A DNA stretch of 64,000 nt. Origin: Spirochaetota bacterium. Its GTDB lineage: Bacteria > Spirochaetota > UBA6919 > CBDBPB01. The notes beneath the pieces were generated by a model that saw only the letters and a list, made by a program, of their open reading frames with translations, was not told where the DNA came from and searched no databases. Of the stretch, positions 8,635 through 50,486 are shown one piece after another. How positions within the stretch are numbered: position 1 is the stretch's first letter; every line of letters begins with the position of its first letter. A program made the position numbers and the translations under genes. The DNA lies in NCBI GenBank assembly GCA_965208615.1, contig CBDBPB010000002.1:1-64000 (forward strand), read 5' to 3'.

Positions 8635-8830
8635 AAATACGCCTTAAAATATAATCTTATTCTAATAATAGCTAATTATTGTTAATTTAGTCTAAAAATA
8701 ACCTGAACTATTAAATAATAAAAATAATACATATATACATCTGTATAAACTTTTTATGACTAATGTACTTTTTTATACATAATTAAACTATATTTCACTC
8801 AACATTAACTCACCACAAAAAGGTAACTAA

Positions 8831-10854
8831 ATGAGCCAAGTCGAGCAATACATAAACGATATTAAAAAAGAGTTTAATACAGGTATAGCTAAAGAACACT
8901 CTTATAGGCCTGCGTTAAAAGAACTAATCGAGTCGTTTAATAAAATAACTGCTGTTAATGAGCCTAAACAAGTTGAATGTGGTGCTCCTGACTTTATCAT
9001 CCAGAATAATGACAAAATAGCAATCGGCTATATAGAAAGCAAAGACATAGATAAAGACCTGAACAGTAAAGCCTTTAAAGAACAGTTTGACCGCTATATA
9101 AACGGCCTTGATAACCTCATAATAACCAACTATCTTAACTTTAAATACTATATAAAAGGCTCTCTTAAATATGAAGTCAAGATCGCAGAAATAATAAATG
9201 GTAAAATAAAAGCCATAACAGAAAACCATAACAACTTTAAAGTTATGATAAATGACTTTCTTAAGCACCGTAGTCAAACTATTAAAAGTGCATCTGATCT
9301 AGCTAATATGATGGATAGTAATGCCCTAATCCTTTCCGACGTTATTAACCTTGGATAATGACGACAAAACAGAAATAAATAGTTCCCTAAAAGGCCAACT
9401 GAAAGCCTTTAAGGATATACTCATACACGACATAACTAATAAAGACTTTGCTGACATATACGCCCAAACCATAGCCTATGGCATGTTTGCTGCAAGACTC
9501 CATGATCCAGAAGTATATAGTTTTAACCGTTCTCAGGCAGCAAGGCTAATCCCTAAAACCAATCCCTTTTTAAGAGAGTTTTTCCAGTATATAGCCAGCT
9601 ATTATCTCGATGAACGCATAACATGGATAGTTGATGCTTTAGCTAATGTCCTCAGGTACACATCAAATAAAACAGTAAAAGATAAAATCATAGAAAAAGA
9701 GGTACATAAAGTCCAGATACTCGATCCAGCTACTGGTACCTTCTTGGCTGAGATAGTAAAACATATATATAATAATTTTAAAGATCAACAGGGTACATGG
9801 ACAAACTATGTTGATCAAGAGCTTATCCCCAGACTAAACGGTTTTGAGCTCATTATGACAAGCTATACCATGGCTCACTTAAAGCTGGAAATGTTACTCA
9901 AAGATACAAATTATAAATCCAATAATGATAGTCGGTTTAAGATTTATTTAAATAACTCTTTAGAGAAGTCTCATCCACACATCCAAAATATGCCTTTTGC
10001 GTATTGGCTAAGAGAAGAAGCTCTATCAGCTAATGAGGTTAAACATGACTATCCCGTTATGATAGTCTTAGGCAACCCTCCATATAGTGGCCATTCACAA
10101 AACAAAGATGACTGGTTAAATAAGCTATTGGACGACTACAAAAAAGAGCCTGGTACAACAAACAAGCTAAACGAGAAAAATCCTAAGTGTATAAATGATG
10201 ATTATGTTAAGTTCATAAGATATGGCCAGTACCTTATAGAGAAAAACAAAGAGGGCGTTTTAGCCTTTATTAATAATCACAGCTTTTTGGATAACCTAAC
10301 CTTTAGGGGTATGCGTTATAACCTTTTAAAAGCTTTTGATAAAATATATATTATGGACTTGCACGGTAACTCAAGGAAAAAAGAAACTCACCCTAATGGA
10401 TCAATAGACCAAAACGTCTTTGACATACAACAAGGAGTTAGTATTAACATTTTTGTTAAGACTAAAAAAAGCATTAATGAGTTAGCAAAAGTCTATCACC
10501 ATAACCTATATGGAGAGCGTGAAGATAAATATGAGTATTTACTTAATAATGATATAACCAGTGTGCCTTACGTACTTTTAGAGAATAAACCACCTTATTA
10601 CTTTTTTGTTAAGAAAGACTTTAAAGATTCTAAACCTAAATAAACAGTACTTCGATAAGGTACCCTTAGTAGCTTATGACTTTTATATTGGAGGCTATCA
10701 GCCTGCTAAAAAATGGCTTAAAGATAGAAAAGATAATAAGCTGAACTATGATGACATAATCCACTATCAAAAGATAATTACCGCCCTATATAATACCCAT
10801 AAACTCATGACTCAAATAGATAAGCACTTAATCCTGAAGGACAAAGCTAAATAG
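8831..10854 (+). pseudogene. Decayed type ISP/IIG fused restriction endonuclease-adenine methyltransferase
   Basis: Three fragments: EHSYRPAL..GAPDF..GYIESKD nuclease; FADIYAQTIAYGMF, ILDPATGT, GNPPYSG, DDYVKF; C-terminal FYIGGYQPAKKWLKDRK. Frameshifts plus large internal deletions (no YYTP motif, most of the specificity domain absent). Confidence 0.85.
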
Positions 10855-13703: not shown

Positions 13704-15086
13704 ATGTTAACAAATAATAGCTGCTTAAAGCTATTAATAGTTTTATTAGTTAGTTTATATATATTTAGCTGCGAGAATAAGAATTTTGTTGATGAAACTT
13801 TGAATAAAGATTCTATTGATAATAAGGATAAAAACGTTGTACAGGGTTCTATATCAGGAGGAATCCATGTAAGGGCTGATGCAAATGAGGGTGGAGACGG
13901 GTTAACTTGGATTAATGCTTTTAATGATCTTCAAAAGGGTATTGAGAAAGCTAAAGAAGAGGGTATAGGAAAGGTATATATTGCTCAAGGTAGTTATAAA
14001 GCTAGTGGTTGTCCTAATAGAGATGATTGTGAAGATATGCGTAATAGACATTTTTCCCTTAGAAATAATGTAGAGGTTATTGGTGGATATACTGCTAAGG
14101 GCGATGAGCATAATAAAGACCCTAGTAAAACTATATTAACCGGTGATATTAGTAATAATATAAGTGTTCATAATGTTTTTTATCATCCTGCTAAGGCTGG
14201 GCTAATTAGAACAGCTAAACTAAAATATGTTACCATTACTAAAGGTAATGCTAAGGGTAATAATAAGGATAGCGGTGGAGGGATGTATAATAATAATAGC
14301 TCACCAACGTTAACAGGTGTTAGTTTTACTGGAAATAATGCTATATGGTCCGGAGGTGGAATGGCTAACTATAATAAGAGTAGTCCAACGTTAAAAGATG
14401 TTAGTTTTACTGGAAATAATGCTGATAATGGTGGAGGGATATATAATAATAATAGCTCACTACAGCTAACAAATGTTAGTTTTACTGGAAATAATGCTGA
14501 TAATGGTGGAGGGATATATAATAATAATAGCTCACTACAGCTAACAAATGTTAGTTTTACTGGAAATAATGCTGATAATGGTGGAGGGATATATAATAAT
14601 AATAGCTCACTACAGCTAACAAATGTTAGTTTTACTAATAATACGGTTGATAATTATGGAGGGGGAATTTATAGTATTGATAGCTCTCTAACATTAACAA
14701 GTGTTAAGTTTATTAATAATATGGCTTATAGTTTTGGAGGTGGAATTCATAATAATGGTAGTTCTATAACGTTAACAAAGGTTGAGTTTATTAATAATAC
14801 GGCTTATAGTTTTGGAGGTGGAATTCATAATGGAGGTAGTAGTAGTTCACTAACCTTTAAAGAAGGTGTTAGTTTTAAGAAAAACCTTGTTGGTAGGATT
14901 AAATATAAACAAACAGGCAAAGGTGGAGCTATTTATAATGAATATGGGAAGGTAAGAGGCAGTCCAAGTTATGGAGCTAAATATATTAATGAAAAAGGAA
15001 AAGAGATCGACGAAGAAAATAAAAAAGTTATAAAAAATAATAATAAATATGTTTATACGAAGTCAGGCAGAGAAGATGAAAAATAG
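13704..15086 (+). CDS. Lipoprotein with Pmp-like (FxxN/GGGIY) beta-helix repeats
   Basis: Spirochaetal-type lipobox YIFSC; DGLTWINAFNDLQ; repeated SFTGNNA..GGGIYN. Confidence 0.85.
   Translation: MLTNNSCLKLLIVLLVSLYIFSCENKNFVDETLNKDSIDNKDKNVVQGSISGGIHVRADANEGGDGLTWINAFNDLQKGIEKAKEEGIGKVYIAQGSYKASGCPNRDDCEDMRNRHFSLRNNVEVIGGYTAKGDEHNKDPSKTILTGDISNNISVHNVFYHPAKAGLIRTAKLKYVTITKGNAKGNNKDSGGGMYNNNSSPTLTGVSFTGNNAIWSGGGMANYNKSSPTLKDVSFTGNNADNGGGIYNNNSSLQLTNVSFTGNNADNGGGIYNNNSSLQLTNVSFTGNNADNGGGIYNNNSSLQLTNVSFTNNTVDNYGGGIYSIDSSLTLTSVKFINNMAYSFGGGIHNNGSSITLTKVEFINNTAYSFGGGIHNGGSSSSLTFKEGVSFKKNLVGRIKYKQTGKGGAIYNEYGKVRGSPSYGAKYINEKGKEIDEENKKVIKNNNKYVYTKSGREDEK
14398..14636 (+). repeat. Perfect 75-bp in-frame tandem repeat (3 full units plus partial)
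   Basis: Identical units start at 14401, 14476, 14551 (partial at 14626), encoding VSFTGNNADNGGGIYNNNSSLQLTN. Confidence 0.95.
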
Positions 15087-25510: not shown

Positions 25511-25667
25511 CTCCATTTTGATCATAGATAAAAATAGTACCGCTAAGCTACGTAATTAAAAGTATTTTCCTAATTTTTTTATAGCTTTCCTTTTTTTGAA
25601 ATAAGTTTCGTATGCTTATGTAATTATACTTAAAAACACATAAATCAATAAACGTAGGTGGCTAATT

Positions 25668-26414
25668 ATGAGATTTAGTTTTTCGACTAATTTTATAAAA
25701 GACAAAGTACTATCTTTATCTGATCCAAACTTTGTTGGTCTAAGAAATACAGTAGTCTCACTTTTAAAAGAGGCATTAAAACAAAATAATCCCGATTTGT
25801 TCAACGAGTATTATAAAAATAGTAAAAACAAAGTAAAGCCTTTTACCTTTTCCTATTATAGCCCTAACCTTAGACAAACAAAAACTAATGAAGCTAATAT
25901 ATTCCAGTTTGATAAACCCTTTATTAGGATATACCTGTCCTCATTGGATAATGGTTTCATTGTTAATATTTATAACGCTCTTAAAAAGCTAAAGAAATAC
26001 TCTTTTTTTAATCATCCCATTAGTTTAGGCAGTTTTACACTGATAAACCAAAAAACCATAACTCAAAATGAGATAAACTTTAAACTTTTATCGCCATTTG
26101 TGGTTAGGCAAATTGATAATAAAAAAGGAGTTGGCTATTTAACCATGTATGACGCTAACTTTGAAGATGGTATTTATTATCAGCTTAAGAATCTTAGCAA
26201 GCATTATCTTAAGAAAGGCTTAGATAGGAACAGCTTTTCAACAGACCTAAATAAGTGTAAGTCGGTTAAGGTTGTGCATTATAGGCAGGCTATAGACACT
26301 ACATCAGGGCTTATCAAGATTAGAGCACCTAAAGATGTTTTATCTATGATATATGATTTAGGACTTGGTTGTCGTCGTAGTCAGGGATTTGGCATGGTGG
26401 AGGTATTGTCATGA
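25668..26414 (+). CDS. cas6: CRISPR endoribonuclease Cas6
   Basis: KPFTFS, LLSPFVVR, C-terminal G-rich loop YDLGLGCRRSQGFGMV. Confidence 0.95.
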   Translation: MRFSFSTNFIKDKVLSLSDPNFVGLRNTVVSLLKEALKQNNPDLFNEYYKNSKNKVKPFTFSYYSPNLRQTKTNEANIFQFDKPFIRIYLSSLDNGFIVNIYNALKKLKKYSFFNHPISLGSFTLINQKTITQNEINFKLLSPFVVRQIDNKKGVGYLTMYDANFEDGIYYQLKNLSKHYLKKGLDRNSFSTDLNKCKSVKVVHYRQAIDTTSGLIKIRAPKDVLSMIYDLGLGCRRSQGFGMVEVLS

Positions 26415-28084
26415 GTGAGGGATTATTGTTAGATAAAAAGACTGAAAAAGTATATTTAGGTGATTGGTTATATAATGCTGGTATAGTAGGCTTTATTAGG
26501 ATCATAAACAATGGTGGGGATAAAAATAAAATATCTGACTTTGTTAAAGTTAATGATAACTCCATAGAGTTTGATAGGGATAAGCTAGAAGGCTTTTCGG
26601 AGAAGTTCTTTGAAACAGCCATAAAGCAATATGGTAGGTATGATAGGTTAGTAGAAGATTTACCCAACTTTGTTAAAGAGATTAATGACTTTAATGGTGA
26701 GCTATCCAATAATTTAAAAAGACTGGTTGACATAGCTGATACTGTTAAAAGACGACTAAACTTTACCTTACTAAAAGAAAAACTAAAAGATAACTATATA
26801 GCCTTACCCAATAAAAAAGCAGTTGAAGATAATCCTCAAATAGTTTTAGACACTATAAAAGAAGTACTGGATATACTTAAAAACGACTATAAAGACTTTC
26901 GGGAAGCTGATACCAAAATCTATTTATCACGTTTCTTTGGAAAGAATAATAGTGAGTCAAAAGGTAAGCTTAATACTTTTAAAAAATACTTTGAAGAGTC
27001 TATAGTAAATAACACTAATAAACCAGCAACAAAGGGAAGAGGAAAGAAGAAAATAGAATTTCAATGCGTTAACTGTGAAAGAATAGCTAAAAAAGATGTA
27101 ATTACAGATACAAGGATTGGTACATTTGCAGGAATAGGCTCAGTAAACGAGGCATGGAACTTTGGACCATACCTTCGTCTTTGTGAGATATGTGAGCTTA
27201 TTTATTTTTGTATTTTTGCTGGTTTTACAGATGTGTCAAGGGGTAAAGAAAAACTGTATTACTTTGTCAACCATGATATTAGTATTCAAGATCTAATCGA
27301 TGATAACCATATTCTACAAAGTGTATTAAGTAAAGGTGCAAAGGATAATATTTTATTCGATTACTTTACGGAATATCTTCATATACAAAAAGAAAAGTCT
27401 AAACATACTTTAAAGAATATATCCTTTATTGAGCTGGATAACCCTAATGGTATAATGCCTAAGGTTTATTCTCTAAACCTTGATAAAACAAAGGCTATGT
27501 TTATTCATAATTACCATGATAAGTTTAATAAGCTTGCCAAAGCCTATTATAAGGTTAAGGATAGCTCAAAAAACATATTAAGAGAACTTGTAGAGCATTT
27601 TCTCCTTAACTCTTTAAGTTATAATCAGATATATTGGTTGGCTAAGATATACATGACCGTAGCAGAAGGTAAATCAGATTATTATAAAGCTTATTTTAAC
27701 ACCTATCACATACAAAACTATATGCTAATTATTGCTTTATACAATAAAATAATTTTACAAGGAGAAAGTTCTATGGCAGACTTTGAGAAAAGTGTGTGGT
27801 TCATTTACAATAAGGGCAAAGAGCTTATGATTAAATTAAGACAGAATCAGGCTGAGAATAAGATTAGCACTATTGTACTTAGCCTATTAAACGCCCTAAG
27901 GGTCGGGGATGTTAATAAGTTTATGGAGGTCATTGTCAGGGTCTATATGGCTTATGGCTTAGATATTCCGTCTACTTTTGTAGAAGGGCTTACAAACAAA
28001 GATAGTTTTTATGCCTATGGTTATAGCTTTGTCAATGGACTATTAGCAAAAGAAAAAACTAATAAGGAGGCTAGTAATGTCTAA
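26411..28084 (+). CDS. cas8b: Type I-B large subunit Cas8b (Cst1, CXXC-CXXC)
   Basis: DWLYNAGIVGF, CVNC...LCEICELIYFC..AGF; C-terminal small-subunit-like region LLNALRVGD..FM preceded by an internal GGAG-ATG (possible Cas11 start at 27773). Confidence 0.9.
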   Translation: MSEGLLLDKKTEKVYLGDWLYNAGIVGFIRIINNGGDKNKISDFVKVNDNSIEFDRDKLEGFSEKFFETAIKQYGRYDRLVEDLPNFVKEINDFNGELSNNLKRLVDIADTVKRRLNFTLLKEKLKDNYIALPNKKAVEDNPQIVLDTIKEVLDILKNDYKDFREADTKIYLSRFFGKNNSESKGKLNTFKKYFEESIVNNTNKPATKGRGKKKIEFQCVNCERIAKKDVITDTRIGTFAGIGSVNEAWNFGPYLRLCEICELIYFCIFAGFTDVSRGKEKLYYFVNHDISIQDLIDDNHILQSVLSKGAKDNILFDYFTEYLHIQKEKSKHTLKNISFIELDNPNGIMPKVYSLNLDKTKAMFIHNYHDKFNKLAKAYYKVKDSSKNILRELVEHFLLNSLSYNQIYWLAKIYMTVAEGKSDYYKAYFNTYHIQNYMLIIALYNKIILQGESSMADFEKSVWFIYNKGKELMIKLRQNQAENKISTIVLSLLNALRVGDVNKFMEVIVRVYMAYGLDIPSTFVEGLTNKDSFYAYGYSFVNGLLAKEKTNKEASNV

Positions 28085-28994
28085 AGGTTTAACATTAACT
28101 ATAGTATTTGATGCAATGAGTTTAAATTATGGTGAGGGGATTGGTAATATATCAGAGTTAAAAAAGCTAAGTCGTGAAGGTGGAGTTTTTACTTACTTAT
28201 CCAGACAGGCTATACGCTACGATATTTTCAGGATGCTAAAGGATAATTTTGATATAGACAAAGGCAAGGATAACCCTTTAACTGTGGATAATACAGTTAT
28301 ACAGTTTAGTGATAAGACCAACATAGAAGACTATATAGAGGCAGATTTGTTTGGCTACATGAAAACGATAAAAGGTAGTGGCTCAGTTACACGTTCATCT
28401 CTTGTACGTATTAGTCCTGCCATTGCACTAGAGCCATTTCACTCTGATTTAGAGTGGGGTACTAATAAGAACTTTGCTGATCGTATGAAGGCTCATCCTA
28501 ATCCTTTTCAGTTTGAGCATCAATATTCTCTTTATTCATATACTATAACCGTTGATCTGGACAGGGTTGGTAAAGATGACAATGATAATATTGATATACC
28601 TAGTACTGAGAAAGCGGATAGGATTAAAAAGCTTATTGAGGTTGTCAAGGTCTTAAACAGGGACATCAAAGGACGAACTGAGAGCTTAAACCCTATTTTT
28701 GTTATAGGTGGTGTGTATAACGTTAAAAATCCATTCTTTTTAAACAAGATTAAGGTAGGCTATAACACAGATAAAAAGGCTTATACTCTGGATACAAATA
28801 TGCTAAACTCAACGTCAGAGTTTGTTTTCAACAACGAGAAAGTAAAAGATCATACAAAAGTGGCTTATTTATCTGGTTTCTGGTCTAATGAAGATGAGTT
28901 TAAAACCATAGTCAGCAAAGAGGATAGCTCTTTTGATAACATAAATGGTTTTTTTGATTCGGTTATTAGCTTAGTAAATAACGCTTATAATTAG
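28077..28994 (+). CDS. cas7: Type I-B Cas7 (Cst2/DevR)
   Basis: SLNYGEGIGNISELKK, SRQAIRY, EADLFGYM, YSYTITVDLDRVG. Confidence 0.93.
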   Translation: MSKGLTLTIVFDAMSLNYGEGIGNISELKKLSREGGVFTYLSRQAIRYDIFRMLKDNFDIDKGKDNPLTVDNTVIQFSDKTNIEDYIEADLFGYMKTIKGSGSVTRSSLVRISPAIALEPFHSDLEWGTNKNFADRMKAHPNPFQFEHQYSLYSYTITVDLDRVGKDDNDNIDIPSTEKADRIKKLIEVVKVLNRDIKGRTESLNPIFVIGGVYNVKNPFFLNKIKVGYNTDKKAYTLDTNMLNSTSEFVFNNEKVKDHTKVAYLSGFWSNEDEFKTIVSKEDSSFDNINGFFDSVISLVNNAYN

Positions 28995-29003
28995 GACAAT
29001 ACA

Positions 29004-29891
29004 ATGAAACTGCTATGTATAAAAGCTCATCAAGTTATGGCTAACTATAAAAAGCCTATGTGTTATGGTTTTATTGATAGCTATCCACTACCGCCTATCT
29101 CAACTATTAAAGGATGGTTCCATGCTGTTATTAATGCAAAGGAGTATATACCCATTAGTATGTCTATACAAGGGAATTCATCCTCGGTGGTATATGACCT
29201 TCAGAGAATGATAAAGTTTGATAGGGATAGGATATTAGAAAAGACAGCAGGGATTGACTTTGATACCTTTCACCGCAGGATAATTGCTAAGATAGCCAAT
29301 GAGGAGGATAAAGAACTTATTAAAAGCCTATATTCTTATGATAGCAAAAAGAAAGAATATATCCGTAAAGGTACTAAAGAATTACCTATCAAGTTTAAGG
29401 AGATTATGAAGTCTATTTCTTATCCTAAGCCTTATCTTGAAGATCATAATAAGATGCTGTCTTACTCGCCCACTTATGTTGCCAACGTGTTTAATATAGA
29501 TTTACTAATTTATATATCGGCGGATAAATGTCATCTTGATAAGTTTAAAGAGAGGGTATTTACTATTGACTATCCCCATATTGGTAGGAATGAGGATCTA
29601 ACCCGTATTGACTCAGTTAAGTATGTTGACGTCAAAGAGAAAAGCTTTGGTATGCAACAAAATCATAGCATAGATTATGGTGTATATTTAAACCGCTCAA
29701 CAACAAAGAAAATGAGTTTAATCGGGTCTAAGTATAGGATGCCTTTTAAGTATGAGGTTGCTAATGGTATTCGTTATTTTAATAGGCTGGATGTTGTATA
29801 TATTGAGGATGGAGCAGTGAATATACCTTGTCTATTTGATTATGAGGAAAATAGAATAATAGACCTAATAGGGGACTACAATGGAACATAG
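29004..29891 (+). CDS. cas5: Type I-B Cas5 with internal ~60-aa insertion
   Basis: ANYKKP..SYPLPPISTIKG, SPTYV, HIGRNEDL; position between cas7 and cas3. Confidence 0.9.
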   Translation: MKLLCIKAHQVMANYKKPMCYGFIDSYPLPPISTIKGWFHAVINAKEYIPISMSIQGNSSSVVYDLQRMIKFDRDRILEKTAGIDFDTFHRRIIAKIANEEDKELIKSLYSYDSKKKEYIRKGTKELPIKFKEIMKSISYPKPYLEDHNKMLSYSPTYVANVFNIDLLIYISADKCHLDKFKERVFTIDYPHIGRNEDLTRIDSVKYVDVKEKSFGMQQNHSIDYGVYLNRSTTKKMSLIGSKYRMPFKYEVANGIRYFNRLDVVYIEDGAVNIPCLFDYEENRIIDLIGDYNGT

Positions 29892-32124
29892 TGTATATGC
29901 CAAAACCTACTACAAAGAAGGCTGGACAACTGAATCGTTAGAGGAGCATGTTAAATGTCTAATGGATAATTTAGGCATATTAAAAAGTCTATATTCAGAA
30001 GAGATAGAAAGGCTTGTGGATGATAGTAAGCTATTTTGGGATAACTTAGGGTTTTGTGTTTTATTCCACGATTGCGGTAAGTTATCCACTCACTTTCAGA
30101 ATAAGATTAGGGACAAGCTAAACGAGGGTAGATTAAGATATAACACTAAGTTAAATGGTGAGATACCTCATAATTATTTATCCCCTGCCTTTGTGCCTGA
30201 GGATATGAGCGACTTTAAGATATTTTTTACTATTGCCTTTCACCACAATCGAAATATAGACTTTGATCAAAACTACCTCAAAACCGTTATTAATAATGAC
30301 CTTCAAAAAGTAGTTGACGCTAATAAAGAACTTTTTTCTTGGTTAAAAAGTTATGGTTATACACTGCGTAGCAAGCTTTGGGATGATTATTTTGACTATC
30401 TTCAGGATGGTAGGTATTATCGCTGTCAATATCAAAAGGTAAGAAAGGATAAGTTATATATTTTACTTAAAGGGCTATTCCACCGTTTAGACCACTCATC
30501 ATCGGCACATATACCTGTTGAGGTTGAGAGAATATCTGATCCAGAGGGCGAGTTACTATACTACTTAAAAAATAAGTTAGAAGAGAAGGGTCTTGCATTT
30601 GAGGGTTTAAAGCCCTTCCAAAAAGAGGCTAAACGCTATCGGGATAATAATGTTTTACTAACTGCATCCACTGGAGTGGGTAAAACAGAGTTTGCCATTA
30701 ACTGGATAGGCAATGACAAGGCATTTTATACTTTACCTCTTAGGGTATCGGTTAACGCTATGTATGAGCGGTTTATAAAGATGTTTTCAGAGGATAAGGT
30801 TGCACTTTTACACGGTGATAGTTTATTATACGAAATCGAAAGTGAGATTGAGGGCAAGAACTTTAAAGTAGAGGATCATATATTTAACGTTCAACATGCT
30901 AAACTATTTTCATTACCTATTACGATATCCACTGCTGATCAGTTATTTACAGCGGTATTCAAGTGGCCTGGTTATGAGAAGATTTATGCTAGCCTTATGT
31001 ATTCTAAGATTGTTTTAGATGAGCCTCAGAGTTATTCTCCCGAGGTTTTAGCTATGATTGTAAAGTGTCTAGAGGAGCTATCGGAATTAGGGTGCAGGTT
31101 TTGTTTTATGAGTGCCACCATTCATCCTTATGTTAGAGAACACTTTAAAGAGGCTGTTAAGTTGGGTCCTATTTATCACAAAGAGGATAAACACCGTATT
31201 TCTTTGGTTGATAACTCTATTGATGGCTTAACCCATAAAATAGAAGAGGAGTTTAGTCGGGATAAGAAGATACTTGTTATATGTAATACTGTAAAAAAGG
31301 CTCAGGAGCTTTATAGTATATTAGACACTTCATCTAAGAAGTTATTGCACTCGGGATTTATAAAAAGGGATAGGTTCATCAAAGAGAAGGATATACAAGC
31401 TGATTATAACAAGGATAAAGCTGTTATTTGGGTTACTACTCAGATAGTTGAGGCATCACTGGATATTGATTATGATATACTTTTTACTGAGCTATCTACC
31501 ATTGACTCTCTATTACAAAGGATGGGTAGGGTGTATCGTAGTACAGAGAGAAAGATAAAGGAAGACGATCCACCTAATGTTATTATAGCAACAAATAAGC
31601 CATCTGACAAATATTATATTTATGATGAGGATGTTGTAAATATTACGCTGGAGGTTTTATTAGAGTATGACAATAAGGTTTTACCAGAAAAAGAAAAGTT
31701 AACCTTAATGGATAAGGTTTTTGGTGATAAAGAGAGGATAAGGGCTTTTTATGATAGGTTTAATAAGACCTATCACTTATTGGATAGTGGTTTTGAGTCG
31801 GATAATAAAAAAGAGGCACAAAAGTTATTTAGGGATATTGCCAACAGGACAGTGATCCCCAATTCGGTTTATGAAGAGAACAAAAAGAGGATTAATGAAA
31901 TAGTTAATAAGCTGAATAGTAAGGGTAGGCTTGACAAAGAAAGACTTTTGAGCATAAAAGGGATTGATGACTTTACGGTGAGTTTAGCTACTTATAAGGT
32001 TTATGGAAAAGAGCGTATTGAGTTAGTGTCTAAGAGAGGTATATTCACAGCGGATATTGATTATAATAGTGAGACAGGCATTGAGTTTACCAAGAAGGCT
32101 AAAAACTACGCTGAGATTATATAG
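29881..32124 (+). CDS. cas3: Cas3 HD nuclease-helicase
   Basis: SLEEH, FHDCGK, FHH, RLDHSSS; ASTGVGKTE, LDEPQ, MSAT, QIVEASLDID, QRMGRVYR. Confidence 0.97.
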   Translation: MEHSVYAKTYYKEGWTTESLEEHVKCLMDNLGILKSLYSEEIERLVDDSKLFWDNLGFCVLFHDCGKLSTHFQNKIRDKLNEGRLRYNTKLNGEIPHNYLSPAFVPEDMSDFKIFFTIAFHHNRNIDFDQNYLKTVINNDLQKVVDANKELFSWLKSYGYTLRSKLWDDYFDYLQDGRYYRCQYQKVRKDKLYILLKGLFHRLDHSSSAHIPVEVERISDPEGELLYYLKNKLEEKGLAFEGLKPFQKEAKRYRDNNVLLTASTGVGKTEFAINWIGNDKAFYTLPLRVSVNAMYERFIKMFSEDKVALLHGDSLLYEIESEIEGKNFKVEDHIFNVQHAKLFSLPITISTADQLFTAVFKWPGYEKIYASLMYSKIVLDEPQSYSPEVLAMIVKCLEELSELGCRFCFMSATIHPYVREHFKEAVKLGPIYHKEDKHRISLVDNSIDGLTHKIEEEFSRDKKILVICNTVKKAQELYSILDTSSKKLLHSGFIKRDRFIKEKDIQADYNKDKAVIWVTTQIVEASLDIDYDILFTELSTIDSLLQRMGRVYRSTERKIKEDDPPNVIIATNKPSDKYYIYDEDVVNITLEVLLEYDNKVLPEKEKLTLMDKVFGDKERIRAFYDRFNKTYHLLDSGFESDNKKEAQKLFRDIANRTVIPNSVYEENKKRINEIVNKLNSKGRLDKERLLSIKGIDDFTVSLATYKVYGKERIELVSKRGIFTADIDYNSETGIEFTKKAKNYAEII

Positions 32125-32260
32125 TTTTAGTCCTAATACCCACCGCCACAAGGTGGTGGCACAGCAAAGTGGGTACACCTAGTGGGATTTAAAGTTATTC
32201 AAAGTGATAAATTTTGTCATTTTAGATAAAAGTTTTAGTCTCCAATAGTGGGGTTTAAAG
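32124..32260 (+). CRISPR. Degenerate intergenic mini-array (interrupted repeat - 37-nt spacer - repeat); candidate crRNA-like regulatory RNA
   Basis: GTTTTAGTCCTAATA (32124-32138), 41-nt insert, TAGTGGGATTTAAAG (32180-32194), spacer 32195-32231, GTTTTAGTCTCCAATAGTGGGGTTTAAAG (32232-32260; 27/29 to array consensus). Confidence 0.85.
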
Positions 32261-32271
32261 GAGATTATATA

Positions 32272-32766
32272 GTGACTTCTACTTATGTTACGGGCATACA
32301 GGTTAATTATTATCATATTTGCCTTAGGAAGTTGTGGCTATTTTCTCATAACATACAGATGGAGCATAATAGTCAGGCAGTTAGTATGGGAAAGGTTATT
32401 CATGACACGTTTTATAGGCGTAAGAGAAAAGAGATTAGGATTGAAGGCATAAAGATAGACTTTTTTGATGCTAAAAATGCTATGATCCACGAGGTTAAGA
32501 AGTCGAGGGCAATGAGTGACTCTCACATTTGGCAAATGAGATATTATCTTTATTTTTTAAAAGGGCTTGGGGTTAATGTATCAGGCATGATTAACTATCC
32601 GTTATTGAGAAAGAGAGAGAGGGTTGAGCTTAATAGCCAAGACATTGTCTATTTGGATAAGGTTTTATTAGATATACAGAGTATTGTGTCTAGGAGTAAT
32701 ATACCAGAGGTTATTAACAAAAAGCTTTGTAAGAGATGTAGTTATTATGATCTTTGTTATGTTTGA
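32272..32766 (+). CDS. cas4: CRISPR-associated exonuclease Cas4
   Basis: TGIQVNYYHICLRKLWLF, KIDF, HEVKKS, QMRYYL, CKRCSYYDLC; GTG start 8 nt after AAGGAG. Confidence 0.95.
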   Translation: MTSTYVTGIQVNYYHICLRKLWLFSHNIQMEHNSQAVSMGKVIHDTFYRRKRKEIRIEGIKIDFFDAKNAMIHEVKKSRAMSDSHIWQMRYYLYFLKGLGVNVSGMINYPLLRKRERVELNSQDIVYLDKVLLDIQSIVSRSNIPEVINKKLCKRCSYYDLCYV

Positions 32767-32772
32767 GGCACT

Positions 32773-33759
32773 ATGAGGGACTATTATATTTTTCGTTCTG
32801 GACGATTAAGGCGTAAGGATAAGTCTTTGATGTTTATTTATATGGATGATGGGTCTAAAAGGTATAAGCCTATTCCCATAAAGGATGTGGACACTATCCA
32901 TATTTTTGGTGAGATGGGTATAAACACAAAGCTCATTAACTTTTTATCTCAGAGGCGTATAGCTCTTCATATATTTAATTACTATGGATTTTATTCTGGT
33001 AATTTTTATCCTAGGGACTACTTAAATGCAGGGGATATTGTAGTAAGGCAGGTTAGTCACTATTTGGATTATGAAAAGCGATTATTTATAGCAAAAGAGA
33101 TGGTAAAGGGTGGGATTTATGGTATTATCAATAATTTAAAGCGTTATTTAGGGGATTGTGAGTTATTAGGTTCAGTTATTAATCTTGAGGATAGCATTGA
33201 TAAACAGGGTAAGATCCCCTCTCTTATGGGTATTGAGGGTAATATTCGTGATCTTTATTACAAGTCGTTTAATTACATAATAAAGCAGGACATTGATTTT
33301 AAAAAGAGGGTTAAGCATCCCCCTGACAACTGGATAAATGCCATAATATCGTTTGTAAATAGTTTGGTATACACAGAGGTTTTGAGGGCATTATATAGAA
33401 CACAGTTAAATCCTACGGTTAGCTATTTACACGAGCCATTTTACCGTAGATATTCTTTATCTTTGGACATAGCGGAGATATTTAAGCCAATACTGGGAGA
33501 TAGATTGATTTTTTCATTATTAAACAACAATCAGCTTAAAAAAAGTCATTTTGATAAGACATTAAACTTTAGTTATTTAAAAGAGCCAGGACGAAAGATA
33601 GTGGTTACGGAGTGGGATAAGAGGCTTAGGGACACGATTTACCATAAGCAGTTAAAGAAGAAAGTTAGTTACAGGCGTTTAGTTAGGCTGGAGGCATATA
33701 AGCTAATTAAGCATTTGTTAGGTGAGGAAGAGTATAAGAGTTTACGTATTTGGTGGTGA
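32773..33759 (+). CDS. cas1: Type I-B Cas1 integrase
   Basis: YYIFRSGRLRRKD, FNYYGFYSG, LMGIEG, NAIISFVNSLVY, SYLHEP, LSLDIAEIFKP. Confidence 0.98.
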   Translation: MRDYYIFRSGRLRRKDKSLMFIYMDDGSKRYKPIPIKDVDTIHIFGEMGINTKLINFLSQRRIALHIFNYYGFYSGNFYPRDYLNAGDIVVRQVSHYLDYEKRLFIAKEMVKGGIYGIINNLKRYLGDCELLGSVINLEDSIDKQGKIPSLMGIEGNIRDLYYKSFNYIIKQDIDFKKRVKHPPDNWINAIISFVNSLVYTEVLRALYRTQLNPTVSYLHEPFYRRYSLSLDIAEIFKPILGDRLIFSLLNNNQLKKSHFDKTLNFSYLKEPGRKIVVTEWDKRLRDTIYHKQLKKKVSYRRLVRLEAYKLIKHLLGEEEYKSLRIWW

Positions 33760-33762
33760 ATT

Positions 33763-34044
33763 ATGTTTGTAATAGGAGCTTATGACGTATCAACAGTGGA
33801 CAAGGCAGGGAGAGCAAGGTTACCGAAGTTGATGAAGTTGATGAGGCAATATTTGCATCATAGTCAGAGGTCGGTTTTTGAGGGTGAGATAACAGAAGGA
33901 GATTTATTGGAATTACGTAAGTCCATTAATAAAATAATTAATAAGGATGAGGATTATGTAGTTATATTTAAGGTAGCCAACCATAAAAATGTAAAGCGAG
34001 AGAATCTTGGTATAGAGTTTGATCCTGGGGATGTAATAATATAA
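33763..34044 (+). CDS. cas2: Cas2
   Basis: VIGAYDVS, YLHHSQRSVFEGEIT. Confidence 0.96.
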   Translation: MFVIGAYDVSTVDKAGRARLPKLMKLMRQYLHHSQRSVFEGEITEGDLLELRKSINKIINKDEDYVVIFKVANHKNVKRENLGIEFDPGDVII

Positions 34045-34122
34045 AAAGCATGATTGGAGGTTTGGGAATAAATTTAAGAAATGGTATATATAATTATATG
34101 TTATATAATAATTTGTGGATGG
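34045..34122 (+). promoter_or_regulatory. Probable CRISPR leader
   Basis: AT-rich non-coding gap between cas2 and first repeat; repeat orientation (3' ATTTAAAG) places the leader here. Confidence 0.55.
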
Positions 34123-34347
34123 GTTTTAGTCGCCAATAGTGGGATTTAAAGATCGTGTATACTATTGCCTTCACTCAAATAATATATGGTTTTAGTCGCC
34201 AATAGTGGGATTTAAAGAGAGAATTGGATATTAAAACTTAGAACAATCATAGTGTTTTAGTCGCCAATAGTGGGATTTAAAGGATGTCTTCTTTGTCAAT
34301 AGTGTCTTTGCACATTTTGTTTTAGTCGCCAATAGTGGGATTTAAAG
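34123..34347 (+). CRISPR. CRISPR array, 4 identical 29-bp repeats and 3 spacers (37, 36, 36 nt)
   Basis: GTTTTAGTCGCCAATAGTGGGATTTAAAG at 34123, 34189, 34254, 34319. Confidence 0.98.
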
Positions 34348-48788: not shown

Positions 48789-50486
48789 ATGTTAATCATA
48801 TTAATTGTTTGGATTTATGCTACGTTCTTACTCTGGTCATTTGGACTGGCTTATCAGAGGATAATCGAAAAGGTATTCTCAGAGCAAAAAGATATATCAC
48901 CATATTTAACCCTGTGGAATGGTATTTTATTTATTACTGTTATATTGTCGGTAATATCTATTTTCTCTAAGATAACTTATGAGTTGTCTTTTGTTTTTTT
49001 GTTGTGTTCTATACTATATATTATATTTGATTTTAGTTATGTTAAAGATAAGTTTAAAAGCATTATACAAAGGTTAAAAGGTATTTCACCTTTTGTTTAT
49101 GTAGTTTTTTTAGTATTTATTATTATTACTTTACACCAAAGTCTACCATCCTTGCTTCAAGGTGATGCTGTTGGATATCATCAGCCAGCGGTTAAGTGGA
49201 TAAATAATTATTCAGTGGTACCTGGGTTAGGTAATTTGCATAATAGACTAGCTTATAACCCCCATTGGTTTTTGTTTTCTGCACTACTTAATTATAACGA
49301 TTATAATTTTCATTTTATAAGTGGATTAATTATGCTATTTGCCATATTTTGGGGGTTAACTGGACTAAATAAGCTATTTCAAAAAAGATTTAATATTACA
49401 AATATAATTAAAGCATTATCACTGCTTCCTATGCTTCTTCTTTTTAGTAATCCTAATGTAAACCACGCTTTCAGTACAGATTTAGCAACTTTTTTTATTG
49501 TCTATTTTATATTATATTATGCAGTTAAATTATTAGTAGAGAAGAAAAAGGATAATAAAGTTTTAATATTTATGCTTGTTAACTTTTCTTTTTTTGTATT
49601 AACAATTAAGCTATCTAGTTTATTTATAGTTATTGCCCCATTGTACTTTTTATATCTTTTTTTAAAGAGGTCTGATATAAAGCTTAAGTCTATTTCTTTT
49701 GTAGCAGTAAGTTTTATTATAATTATAATGCCTTTTTTAATAAGAAATATTATTTTATCAGGATATTTAGTTTTTCCTTTCCCAATGTTAGACTTCTTTA
49801 ATTTTGACTGGAAGATGCCTTATAATGCAGTGGTTGACTTAAAGAATTTTATAGGGCTTTGGGCCAAATGGCAAGGTGGAGGCTATTTGGAAGTAGCTAA
49901 TAATGATTTTTGGTTTTGGTTTATACCATGGATAAAAGTAAACTGGAAAACTCGAGAATTACTTTTATTAGTTATAAGTATTATAACTTATGTTTTTTAT
50001 TTCTTTTTTCACTATAACAGGGCAATAAGCCATTTAAAAAAGTTTAGTATTATTTATTTGACTTTGTTAGTTAATATTAGTGTATGGTTTATTACTGCAC
50101 CTGCTATTAGATTTGCTAGTGGTTATATATTCTTTTTTAGTATATTTTTAATAGCTTTACAAGAGTGGGACTTTATAATTAAAATTAGAGAAAATGTTAA
50201 TACAATACGACTGGCAAAAGTATTATTAATATTAGCACTTTGCGTTTTGTTTTTTCGTATGGATTTTACTAAATTTATAAACATTAAAGACTGGATAACC
50301 TTATCCTCTTATCCAGAGGCAGAGCTAACTACTAAAAAAACAATAGACAATACAATAATTTATGTGCCAGTAAAAGATGAAATCTGTTACAACTCCCCCT
50401 TAACTTGTACGGCATATTTTAATCCTAACTTAGAGATGCGTGGTAAAAGCCTACAAGATGGGTTTAGGATAGCGGATAATAAATAG
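48789..50486 (+). CDS. Polytopic membrane protein, LIC_10190-like, probable GT-C fold (copy 1)
   Basis: Many TM segments; D..YH and PGLGNL loop, STD, TIKLS, RNIILSGYLVFP, WFITAP..RF, C-terminal Cys pair, LEMRG..LQDGFR. Confidence 0.75.
   Translation: MLIILIVWIYATFLLWSFGLAYQRIIEKVFSEQKDISPYLTLWNGILFITVILSVISIFSKITYELSFVFLLCSILYIIFDFSYVKDKFKSIIQRLKGISPFVYVVFLVFIIITLHQSLPSLLQGDAVGYHQPAVKWINNYSVVPGLGNLHNRLAYNPHWFLFSALLNYNDYNFHFISGLIMLFAIFWGLTGLNKLFQKRFNITNIIKALSLLPMLLLFSNPNVNHAFSTDLATFFIVYFILYYAVKLLVEKKKDNKVLIFMLVNFSFFVLTIKLSSLFIVIAPLYFLYLFLKRSDIKLKSISFVAVSFIIIIMPFLIRNIILSGYLVFPFPMLDFFNFDWKMPYNAVVDLKNFIGLWAKWQGGGYLEVANNDFWFWFIPWIKVNWKTRELLLLVISIITYVFYFFFHYNRAISHLKKFSIIYLTLLVNISVWFITAPAIRFASGYIFFFSIFLIALQEWDFIIKIRENVNTIRLAKVLLILALCVLFFRMDFTKFINIKDWITLSSYPEAELTTKKTIDNTIIYVPVKDEICYNSPLTCTAYFNPNLEMRGKSLQDGFRIADNK

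Follow-up and report, generated by a model that had tools for sequence, protein, structure and literature searches.

A repeat-spacer-repeat unit between cas3 and cas4 of a Spirochaetota type I-B CRISPR-Cas locus, with a spacer of apparent self-origin

What a single spacer between two degenerate repeats is doing inside a cas operon is the question raised by the cas3-cas4 gap in a genome of Spirochaetota bacterium (NCBI GenBank assembly GCA_965208615.1, contig CBDBPB010000002.1). The stretch of DNA analyzed, hereafter the window, covers positions 1 to 64,000 of the forward strand of this contig and holds a type I-B locus in the order cas6-cas8b1-cas7-cas5-cas3-cas4-cas1-cas2, with a main CRISPR array beyond it (Table 1). 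An initial annotation had proposed a hidden one-spacer mini-array in the gap, as a candidate regulatory CRISPR RNA (crRNA)-like RNA resembling those of the CreA/CreR type. Our preferred answer, held tentatively, is that the unit is a processed cassette with a disarmed self-spacer, and that any selected role is local, through cutting of the RNA between the two gene modules, the Shine-Dalgarno (SD) sequence of cas4 and hairpin barriers. This answer starts from what is seen in the DNA, namely the anatomy of the unit, the signature of its insertion, the preservation of hairpins and handle, and the origin of the spacer in the host genome, with mismatches in the seed.

The cas3-cas4 gap (32125-32271; 147 nucleotides, nt) holds a full repeat-spacer-repeat unit, psiR1-spacer-psiR2. 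To call it almost wholly repeat-derived, as had been done, overstates the case: 57 of the 147 nt derive from the repeat, and the others are spacer (37), an insert (41) and duplicated junction (12). The main array (34123-34347) has four 29-nt repeats that are identical, GTTTTAGTCGCCAATAGTGGGATTTAAAG. Read against them, psiR1 (32124-32194) proves to be complete, but the insert interrupts it in the apical loop, after which it resumes at repeat position 15; its first G is the last base of the cas3 stop codon (TAG, 32122-32124). The initial annotation had seen in this upstream repeat only a retained 3' end of 15 nt with its 8-nt handle; that end is indeed present and exact, but it belongs to a complete, interrupted repeat and not to a stump. 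The same annotation was right about psiR2, a 27/29 repeat whose two changes allow the stem (G10T falls in the bulge, and A22G gives a U.G pair), and about the canonical length of the spacer, those of the main array being 37, 36, and 36 nt long. Its statements that the unit has no leader, lies inside the cas operon and is about 1.9 kb from the main array, which starts 1891 nt downstream, were also borne out, and the leader motif GGAGGTTTGGGAATAAATT present at all three arrays of the genome is absent from the mini-array.

A search for the repeat in the window, at up to three mismatches, returned five matches, and none in 100 shuffled controls; within the unit, the likeness of the flanks to the repeat, scored against shuffles, gave z values of 7.7 and 15.6. 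With 15/15 identities at the 3' end of psiR1, 27/29 in psiR2 and an interval of 37 nt, the unit is a mini-array in the sense used for cas loci. The insert in psiR1 has no second copy in the genome (best other match, 12 nt), is flanked by TA on both sides, and contains an 8-bp hairpin, CCACCGCC-ACAA-GGTGGTGG (32140-32159). Moreover, the 147-nt gap has no ATG, no small toxin-like gene, and no room beyond the unit; an Rfam search of the cas3-cas4 gaps of this genome and of its closest available relative, G001, gave no matches.

The edges of the unit tell how it may have arrived. When the gap was compared with the genome by BLAST, an exact 13-nt direct repeat, GAGATTATATAGT, was found on its two sides, and deleting one copy together with the intervening 135 nt leaves GAGATTATATAGTGACT, where the TAG of cas3 overlaps with the GTG of cas4 (TAGTG); the unit therefore looks inserted into a once-overlapping cas3 stop and cas4 start. 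From 401 genomes of the phylum, the 30 best Cas4 loci were taken for a survey of this junction, which was measurable at 25 loci besides that of the host. In 22 of these 25 the cas3-cas4 distance was between -10 and +21 nt, and no repeat-like sequence was detected in the junctions of the three exceptions, with gaps of 367, 191, and 113 nt. Given the flanking duplication and the tight junctions of these 22 loci, the mini-array appears to have entered, in this lineage only, a junction that is normally tight; exactly this structure would follow from a switch of template that left the junction for an array and came back 13 nt upstream. The 191-nt gap, in relative G047 (locus L052), has a short open reading frame (ORF) of about 18 codons (MEKKKPILKGTLKYLKNY).

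The host genome (2.46 Mb, 31% G+C, ~86% coding, 99.4% complete) is the sole member of its family, and a Cas4-based search for further loci returned no close relative, only three distant ones in genome contigs (39-49%) and one in metagenome contigs (48%). Among sequencing runs, one (X1), possibly the source sample, matched at 100% identity, another (X2) had the same sequence at a depth of 2, in a contig that ends at 32168 within psiR1, and a third (X3) gave no match.

The insertion also bears on the translation of cas4. Since a relative's Cas4 starts with MTS... at the place equivalent to GTG 32272, this codon, and not 32248, is most likely the start; in front of it, the end of psiR2 and the duplicated GAG together form AAGGAG, so that the insertion appears to have created a stronger SD for cas4.

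The spacer (predicted hairpin of -8.7 kcal/mol, z -4.1) points to the host genome itself. Its best match in a whole-genome scan was 33/37 (C8:54995-55031, minus strand; C numbers denote contigs of the assembly), where 30 shuffles reached 26-29 and the three main-array spacers 25-27, and for the 15 ordinary spacers in the genome's three arrays no self match exceeds 16 nt. A chromosomal match outside an array is the mark of a self-targeting spacer, and here it is present in imperfect form, at 33/37. Furthermore, the spacer core (32199-32223) is 25 nt of a dispersed palindrome family, exact cores of which, TCAAAATGATAAATTTTGTCATTTT, lie on C3, C4, and C8; it carries one change, a G at spacer position 10, unlike all other listed family members at up to three mismatches. 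The palindrome, AAATGAYAAAWTTTRTCATTT, has 13 sites in the genome at no more than one mismatch (e.g., C3:131388, C4:258898, C7:153993, C8:55004, and C9:43899) and about 20 at 2-3 mismatches or fewer, and was absent from 39 of 40 relatives, with no match for a reversed control. On the strength of the 33/37 match, compared with shuffles and ordinary spacers, and of this host-specific family, the spacer appears to derive from the host genome and not from a foreign source. In viral contigs, the motif gave three single matches, about as many as expected by chance, and in none did the likeness extend to the spacer (22-25 of 37 positions).

The family consists of half-sites TGAYAAA-W-TTTRTCA with A4/T4 on the flanks, and its hairpins are predicted at between -2 and -15 kcal/mol. 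Twelve of the 13 sites lie outside ORFs of at least 90 amino acids (aa), in divergent (3), convergent (3), and tandem (6) contexts, the other being within a doubtful ORF; many are 2-126 nt past a gene end, three are between convergent genes, and three of the 13 are in or beside the two CRISPR-cas loci of the genome. Neighboring genes encode TPR proteins, an aminotransferase, a LysM protein, an M20 peptidase/VIT protein, ABC-F, LarC, a Na/Ca exchanger, an SNF symporter, and cas6. As these neighbors are incoherent and no gene for a DNA-binding protein lies beside the examined sites, a transcription-factor regulon was rejected. RAYT (PF01797) gave no match in the host genome; of 14 control genomes, 6 gave a match in the same search. 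Mobility driven by RAYT is accordingly unsupported. Because the copies are intergenic, with flanks that are not conserved between sites, no common gene theme and no RAYT, we regard them as dispersed palindromes resembling repetitive extragenic palindromic (REP) sequences, which could act as a weak bidirectional terminator or as a protein site. Repeat-like flanks occur, among the palindrome copies, solely at the cas3-cas4 gap: the idea that others are hidden mini-arrays was rejected after 72 tests on 18 sites against both repeat types (z at most 2.44), and an apparent repeat likeness in one alignment of palindrome flanks was not significant.

The closest available relative, G001, which belongs to the same taxonomic order and has the same repeat family and a Cas4 60% identical, is the one with the 367-nt gap (locus L006, 1915-2281). 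This gap has two copies of a palindrome, CATGGTTCGAGAGCCTCACCATGACA, which occurs across that genome (36 matches; control, 0) and differs in sequence from the host palindrome. It also has a G+C-rich stretch with GGTGGTGG, the word found in the host psiR1 insert; alignment showed only this word in common, and homology of the two gaps was rejected. Thus the junction seems to have been colonized by a local dispersed palindrome in two lineages, and only in the host as a CRISPR spacer.

If the RNA acted on promoters, the spacer should have a target. The initial annotation had found no convincing one in the window and had recommended a partial-match search that ignores every sixth base; such a search gave no target with a credible seed at the promoters of either cas locus. 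The longest seed runs in both loci cover 8-9 positions and belong to an AT word of low complexity, for which the genome has 251 sites at nine or more. Its single suggestion, 25553-25563 upstream of cas6, was rightly called weak. Sites of that class (at least 9/10 seed matches) number 1438 in the genome, 0.13 would be expected in the 222-nt region upstream of cas6 (P ~0.12), and no plus-strand promoter was predicted there. A full match to a phage or plasmid, which would have made the unit the remnant of an ordinary array, was not seen either, phages giving chance-level matches and plasmids none. Searches with this spacer and with the arrays found no protospacer in phages or plasmids that would reveal the protospacer adjacent motif (PAM), and a weak promoter target is therefore possible.

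The best genomic match, on the minus strand of C8, has TCA as its 5' flank and mismatches at spacer positions 2, 10, 30, and 31, with positions 11-29 matching; read on its plus strand, the site matches perfectly at positions 1-9 (28/37 overall), with TTT as the 5' flank. Some clostridial I-B systems use TCA as a PAM. The C8 site is 90 nt past a gene for a PEP-utilizing enzyme and 579 nt before the next long ORF, at no recognizable promoter. Two 14-nt perfect seeds, C4:68549 and C4:146884, were discounted, both being within ORFs, with ~0.15 expected by base frequency; the former (C4:68549-68562, spacer positions 1-14, 5' flank TTA) is 25 nt into a 557-aa ORF and is probably a chance match. With seed runs of 8-9 positions of a common AT word, and with C8 mismatches in the seed, the spacer appears to lack the PAM-flanked, seed-matched cas or toxin promoter target that defines CreR/CreA. 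The likeness to CreA/CreR that had been proposed thus stands for architecture and handles, but not for the target.

The repeats themselves seem to have kept what processing would need. The canonical repeat is predicted to fold into a 7-bp hairpin with G10 bulged (A6-U24, G7.U23, U8-A22, C9-G21, C11-G20, C12-G19, and A13-U18). In psiR1 the bulged G is lost, C12-G19 becomes U.G and the insertion sits in the apical loop, with all seven pairs kept; in psiR2 the bulge is substituted (G10U) and U8-A22 becomes U.G. Hence all five changes across the two psi-repeats preserve the hairpin, the psiR1 handle is 8/8, and the 3'-handle part of psiR2 (positions 1-21) is 20/21. Under random change, a rough post-hoc estimate that all changes would be hairpin-preserving is ~0.01 (with ~0.04 for both paired-position substitutions keeping pairing and ~0.16 for an insertion landing in the loop), which, from few events, is only suggestive.

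A simple scan found no terminator-like sites in the gap, and transcription of the operon should therefore run through the unit. A promoter-like site on the antisense strand (32291-32264, 10/12) was dismissed, the region having four such sites against 2.2 expected. Type I-B Cas6 cuts 8 nt before the repeat end. Since the hairpin is kept by all five changes and the handle is intact, Cas6 processing of the unit to a 66-nt crRNA-like RNA is plausible.

In the reading that we prefer, the unit would have been copied from an array and inserted, with the 13-nt duplication, at the overlapping cas3 stop and cas4 start. Its spacer would have been acquired from the genome's own palindrome family, and would later have gained seed mismatches to every genomic copy, ending as a disarmed self-spacer. 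The unit would be transcribed within the cas operon, because it has no leader or promoter of its own, and each psi-repeat is probably still recognized by Cas6 and cut 8 nt before its end. The cuts would release the crRNA-like RNA (32187-32252) and would separate the cas6-to-cas3 message from the cas4-cas1-cas2 message; the latter would begin at 32253, 19 nt before the cas4 start, and would retain the strong SD derived from psiR2. The local role might then be to uncouple the adaptation genes from the interference genes, or to tune their relative expression, the two stable hairpins serving as barriers. A selected role, if any, is more likely to be local than a repression of promoters of the CreR type, and a CreR-like role for the mini-array is possible but unsupported.

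Several points weigh against this preferred reading. No relative carries the unit, which was present in none of the 25 more distant related loci. The changes that keep the hairpin are just five, and the test was devised after seeing them; about eight changes in ~97 nt would fit uniform neutral decay, and, at its two outer ends, the cas3 stop and the cas4 SD limit change in any case. Transcription, cutting by Cas6, loading into Cascade and an effect on expression are steps that we infer, including that Cas6 would still cleave a repeat whose loop has gained 41 nt; the role in cis is a proposal only, and the element could be processed yet useless.

Such uselessness is the core of the explanation that we consider rather doubtful, in which the unit is an inert fossil: an array fragment left by a replication or repair accident, with a self-derived spacer, now decaying, and either uncut or cut without consequence. 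The restriction of the unit to the host genome, the tightness of the junction in 22 of 25 loci and the lack of repeat-like sequence in the three long gaps fit this view, and the G001 junction, filled by two copies of its own palindrome, suggests that the site tolerates junk. A seed-mutated self spacer is the expected trace of escape from autoimmunity, no target was found, and the amount of change agrees with neutral decay. Against it stand the hairpin kept through five of five changes, with the handle intact, and the better SD that the insertion gave to cas4; moreover, with no terminator found in the gap, the unit is transcribed if the operon reads through. We deem it unlikely that the RNA is instead a regulator acting in trans, as those of the CreR/CreA, scaRNA or Haloferax s479 type do, parking Cascade on a partial match without cleavage, be it at the C8 palindrome copy, at a cas promoter of the first or second locus, or at a site like C4:68549. 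The rule for CreA/CreR, in the available part of its description (10.1101/2023.03.10.532045), is that psiR1 keeps the 8-nt 5' handle and psiR2 the 3'-handle part, and the conserved parts of the two psi-repeats follow it. Besides, mini-arrays occur in ~19% of bacterial I-B loci, many with predicted cas-promoter targets, according to the main text of a survey (PMC10120712). Three of the 13 palindrome copies are in or beside the CRISPR-cas loci, and candidate sites can be named: the 33/37 match on the C8 minus strand (TCA), positions 1-9 on its plus strand (TTT) and positions 1-14 at C4:68549. Nevertheless, no cas promoter offers more than the AT word with its 251 sites; the C8 mismatches at seed positions 2 and 10 are the reverse of the CreA/CreR design, which is seed-matched and distally mismatched; the C8 site is at no promoter that we recognize, the cas3-cas4 gap has neither an ATG nor a small toxin-like gene, and no protospacers from which to take a PAM were found in phages or plasmids.

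Two further explanations give the palindrome itself the leading part. In one, which we hold to be improbable, the mini-array RNA is either a working guide against the genome's own palindrome family or the fossil of immunity to it. As a guide, it would be domesticated and park Cascade on hairpin sites, including the flanks of the second locus, tuning termination or read-through; as a fossil, it would record immunity against an intragenomic selfish repeat, disarmed by seed mutation after the repeat had colonized the chromosome. In either version, Cas6 cutting in the cas operon would tie production of the crRNA-like RNA to the balance between interference and adaptation. The other, to which we give the least credence, takes the palindrome as functional in the DNA or the transcript, as an operator for a protein or as a weak bidirectional terminator or attenuator between cas3 and cas4, with the repeats as a mere vehicle. 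In its favor, 12 of 13 sites avoid ORFs in a genome that is ~86% coding, with A4/T4-flanked half-sites that form hairpins of -2 to -15 kcal/mol, many follow a gene end closely or lie between convergent genes, and copies stand upstream of cas6 and downstream of cas3' in the second I-B locus. The mixed contexts, however, are unlike those of a pure operator or a pure terminator, no DNA-binding gene lies beside the examined sites, the terminator scan of the gap was empty, and the exact 37-nt spacing is explained by spacer integration and not by selection of an operator.

Mini-arrays within cas loci are by now established as regulators. Whichever explanation holds, the unit sits at the boundary of the interference and adaptation modules, whereas the I-B cases reported in the available texts cluster at cas6/cas8 and target cas promoters, and its clean insertion signature with a 13-nt duplication shows how such units can arise. 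If it is processed, as in our preferred reading, Cas6 would cut the cas operon transcript, a simple means of setting how much adaptation protein is made relative to interference protein; an inert unit would clearly illustrate how self-derived spacers come to be tolerated after seed mutation.

Table 1. Coordinates of the cas3-cas4 unit and of the surrounding type I-B locus in the window.
Feature	Position	Strand	Remark
cas6, cas8b1/Cst1, cas7/Cst2, and cas5b of the same operon	25668-29891	+	cas6, 25668-26414
cas3 (HD + helicase, 747 aa)	29881-32124	+	TIGR01587, 1.3e-71; TIGR01596, 7.3e-17
Direct repeat, copy 1, including the cas3 stop codon	32113-32125	+	13/13 identical to copy 2
psiR1, 5' part: repeat positions 1-16, G10 deleted and C12T	32124-32138	+	Read against the array repeat
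Insert in the psiR1 apical loop, 41 nt, 63% G+C	32139-32179	+	
psiR1, 3' part: last 15 nt of the repeat, TAGTGGGATTTAAAG, 100% identity	32180-32194	+	
Predicted 8-nt 5' handle, ATTTAAAG	32187-32194	+	Position expected from type I-B Cas6 processing
Predicted 66-nt crRNA-like RNA	32187-32252	+	Expected from the anatomy, with a cut 8 nt before each psi-repeat end
Spacer, 37 nt, 16% G+C, near-palindrome	32195-32231	+	
psiR2, 27/29 against the repeat; G10T (32241) and A22G (32253)	32232-32260	+	
cas4 SD, AAGGAG, 8 nt before GTG	32258-32263	+	End of psiR2 and duplicated GAG
Direct repeat, copy 2, including the cas4 start GTG (32272)	32261-32273	+	
cas4 (164 aa)	32272-32766	+	TIGR00372, 1.6e-20
cas1 (32773-33759) and cas2 (33763-34044)	32773-34044	+	
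Leader (with GGAGGTTTGGGAATAAATT) and main array, 4 repeats/3 spacers	34045-34347	+	

The second I-B locus, of the Csh/Hmari kind (C1:340772-348495; L077, 7773-15496), is composed of cas6 on the minus strand, a seven-repeat array (GTTTAACCGTACCTATAAGGAATTGAAAC), cas8b/Csh1, cas7/Csh2, cas5h, cas3'', and cas3'. It has interference genes only, with no cas1, cas2, or cas4, and therefore presumably relies on the adaptation genes of the window. A third array (C1:280391-280817, minus strand) has seven repeats of the type of the second locus and six spacers; its leader contains TATCGGAGGTTTGGGAATAAATT, which is common to the other two array leaders and to that of G001, and GGAGGTTTGGGAATAAATT is common to all three host arrays. 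Palindrome copies lie 121 nt upstream of the second-locus cas6 and just after its cas3'. The stretches around these copies (L077 8561-8740 and 15551-15730; C1:341.6 kb and 348.6 kb) are alike beyond the palindrome (...AAGxTTTTAxxATTAA...GAATAAGATAG) and may be direct repeats around the second array and its cas operon. A promoter-like element of about 43 nt, GTGTGATATTTATAAACxTTTGTTTGTATxATAA, occurs twice in the same region, before the leader of the second array (L077 ~8723-8765) and before its cas8b (~9418-9459).

Elsewhere in the window, a unit of 75-78 nt is repeated in tandem at 14274-14831 (4-5 copies, 82-89% matches), probably within a coding region, and encodes units of the GGGIYNN... 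type, and a TTTTGG run recurs at 49908, 51697, 53483, and 55338, a spacing of ~1.8 kb that suggests a tandem series of paralogous units of this length.

Among known phenomena, self-targeting spacers with escape mutations combine a chromosomal match, seed mismatches and a degenerate flanking repeat. The host spacer is alike in all three, at 33/37, but its unit differs in lying outside any array, within the cas operon, and the spacer matches a multi-copy palindrome and not a prophage or a single gene. REPs within operons act as mRNA barriers that set differential expression. The host family is similar in consisting of imperfect palindromes of 21-25 nt that are intergenic, multi-copy, and lineage-specific, but differs in lacking RAYT (PF01797) and in having only about 13-20 copies; to our knowledge, no REP has been described as a CRISPR spacer.

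Surveyed mini-arrays (Shmakov et al.; PMC10120712), as far as the main text of that source describes them, are like the host unit in having two repeat-like sequences a spacer length apart in a I-B locus; there, the repeat-like sequences lie for the most part near cas6, and their targets are at its promoter. The same text makes no mention of cas4 or of a cas3-cas4 site, and its supplement, or that of the CreA/CreR paper, may list such cases. It also cites crRNA-like RNAs from cas loci, Haloferax s479 and Francisella scaRNA, by which chromosomal genes other than cas can be repressed; these have demonstrated targets, which the host unit does not. With CreR/CreA, known from types I-B, I-E, and V-A (10.1101/2023.03.10.532045, available part), the host unit shares a psiR-psiS-psiR arrangement in a cas intergenic region with no leader, as well as the handle rule (psiR1 8/8, psiR2 20/21). 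However, it has no adjacent creT-like gene in its 147-nt gap such as CreTA would have, lies between cas3 and cas4 and not near cas6/cas8, and carries a spacer that is a near-full-length copy of a genomic repeat, mismatched in the seed, for which no PAM-flanked, seed-matched cas or toxin promoter was found; the 41-nt structured insertion in the psiR1 loop is a further difference. Consequently, the unit is a member of the broad mini-array class, and the CreR claim fails at the target. Four features set it apart from the cases described in the available texts: it lies between cas3 and cas4, its psiR1 has an insertion in the loop, a duplication flanks it, and its spacer derives from a repeat family of the host itself.

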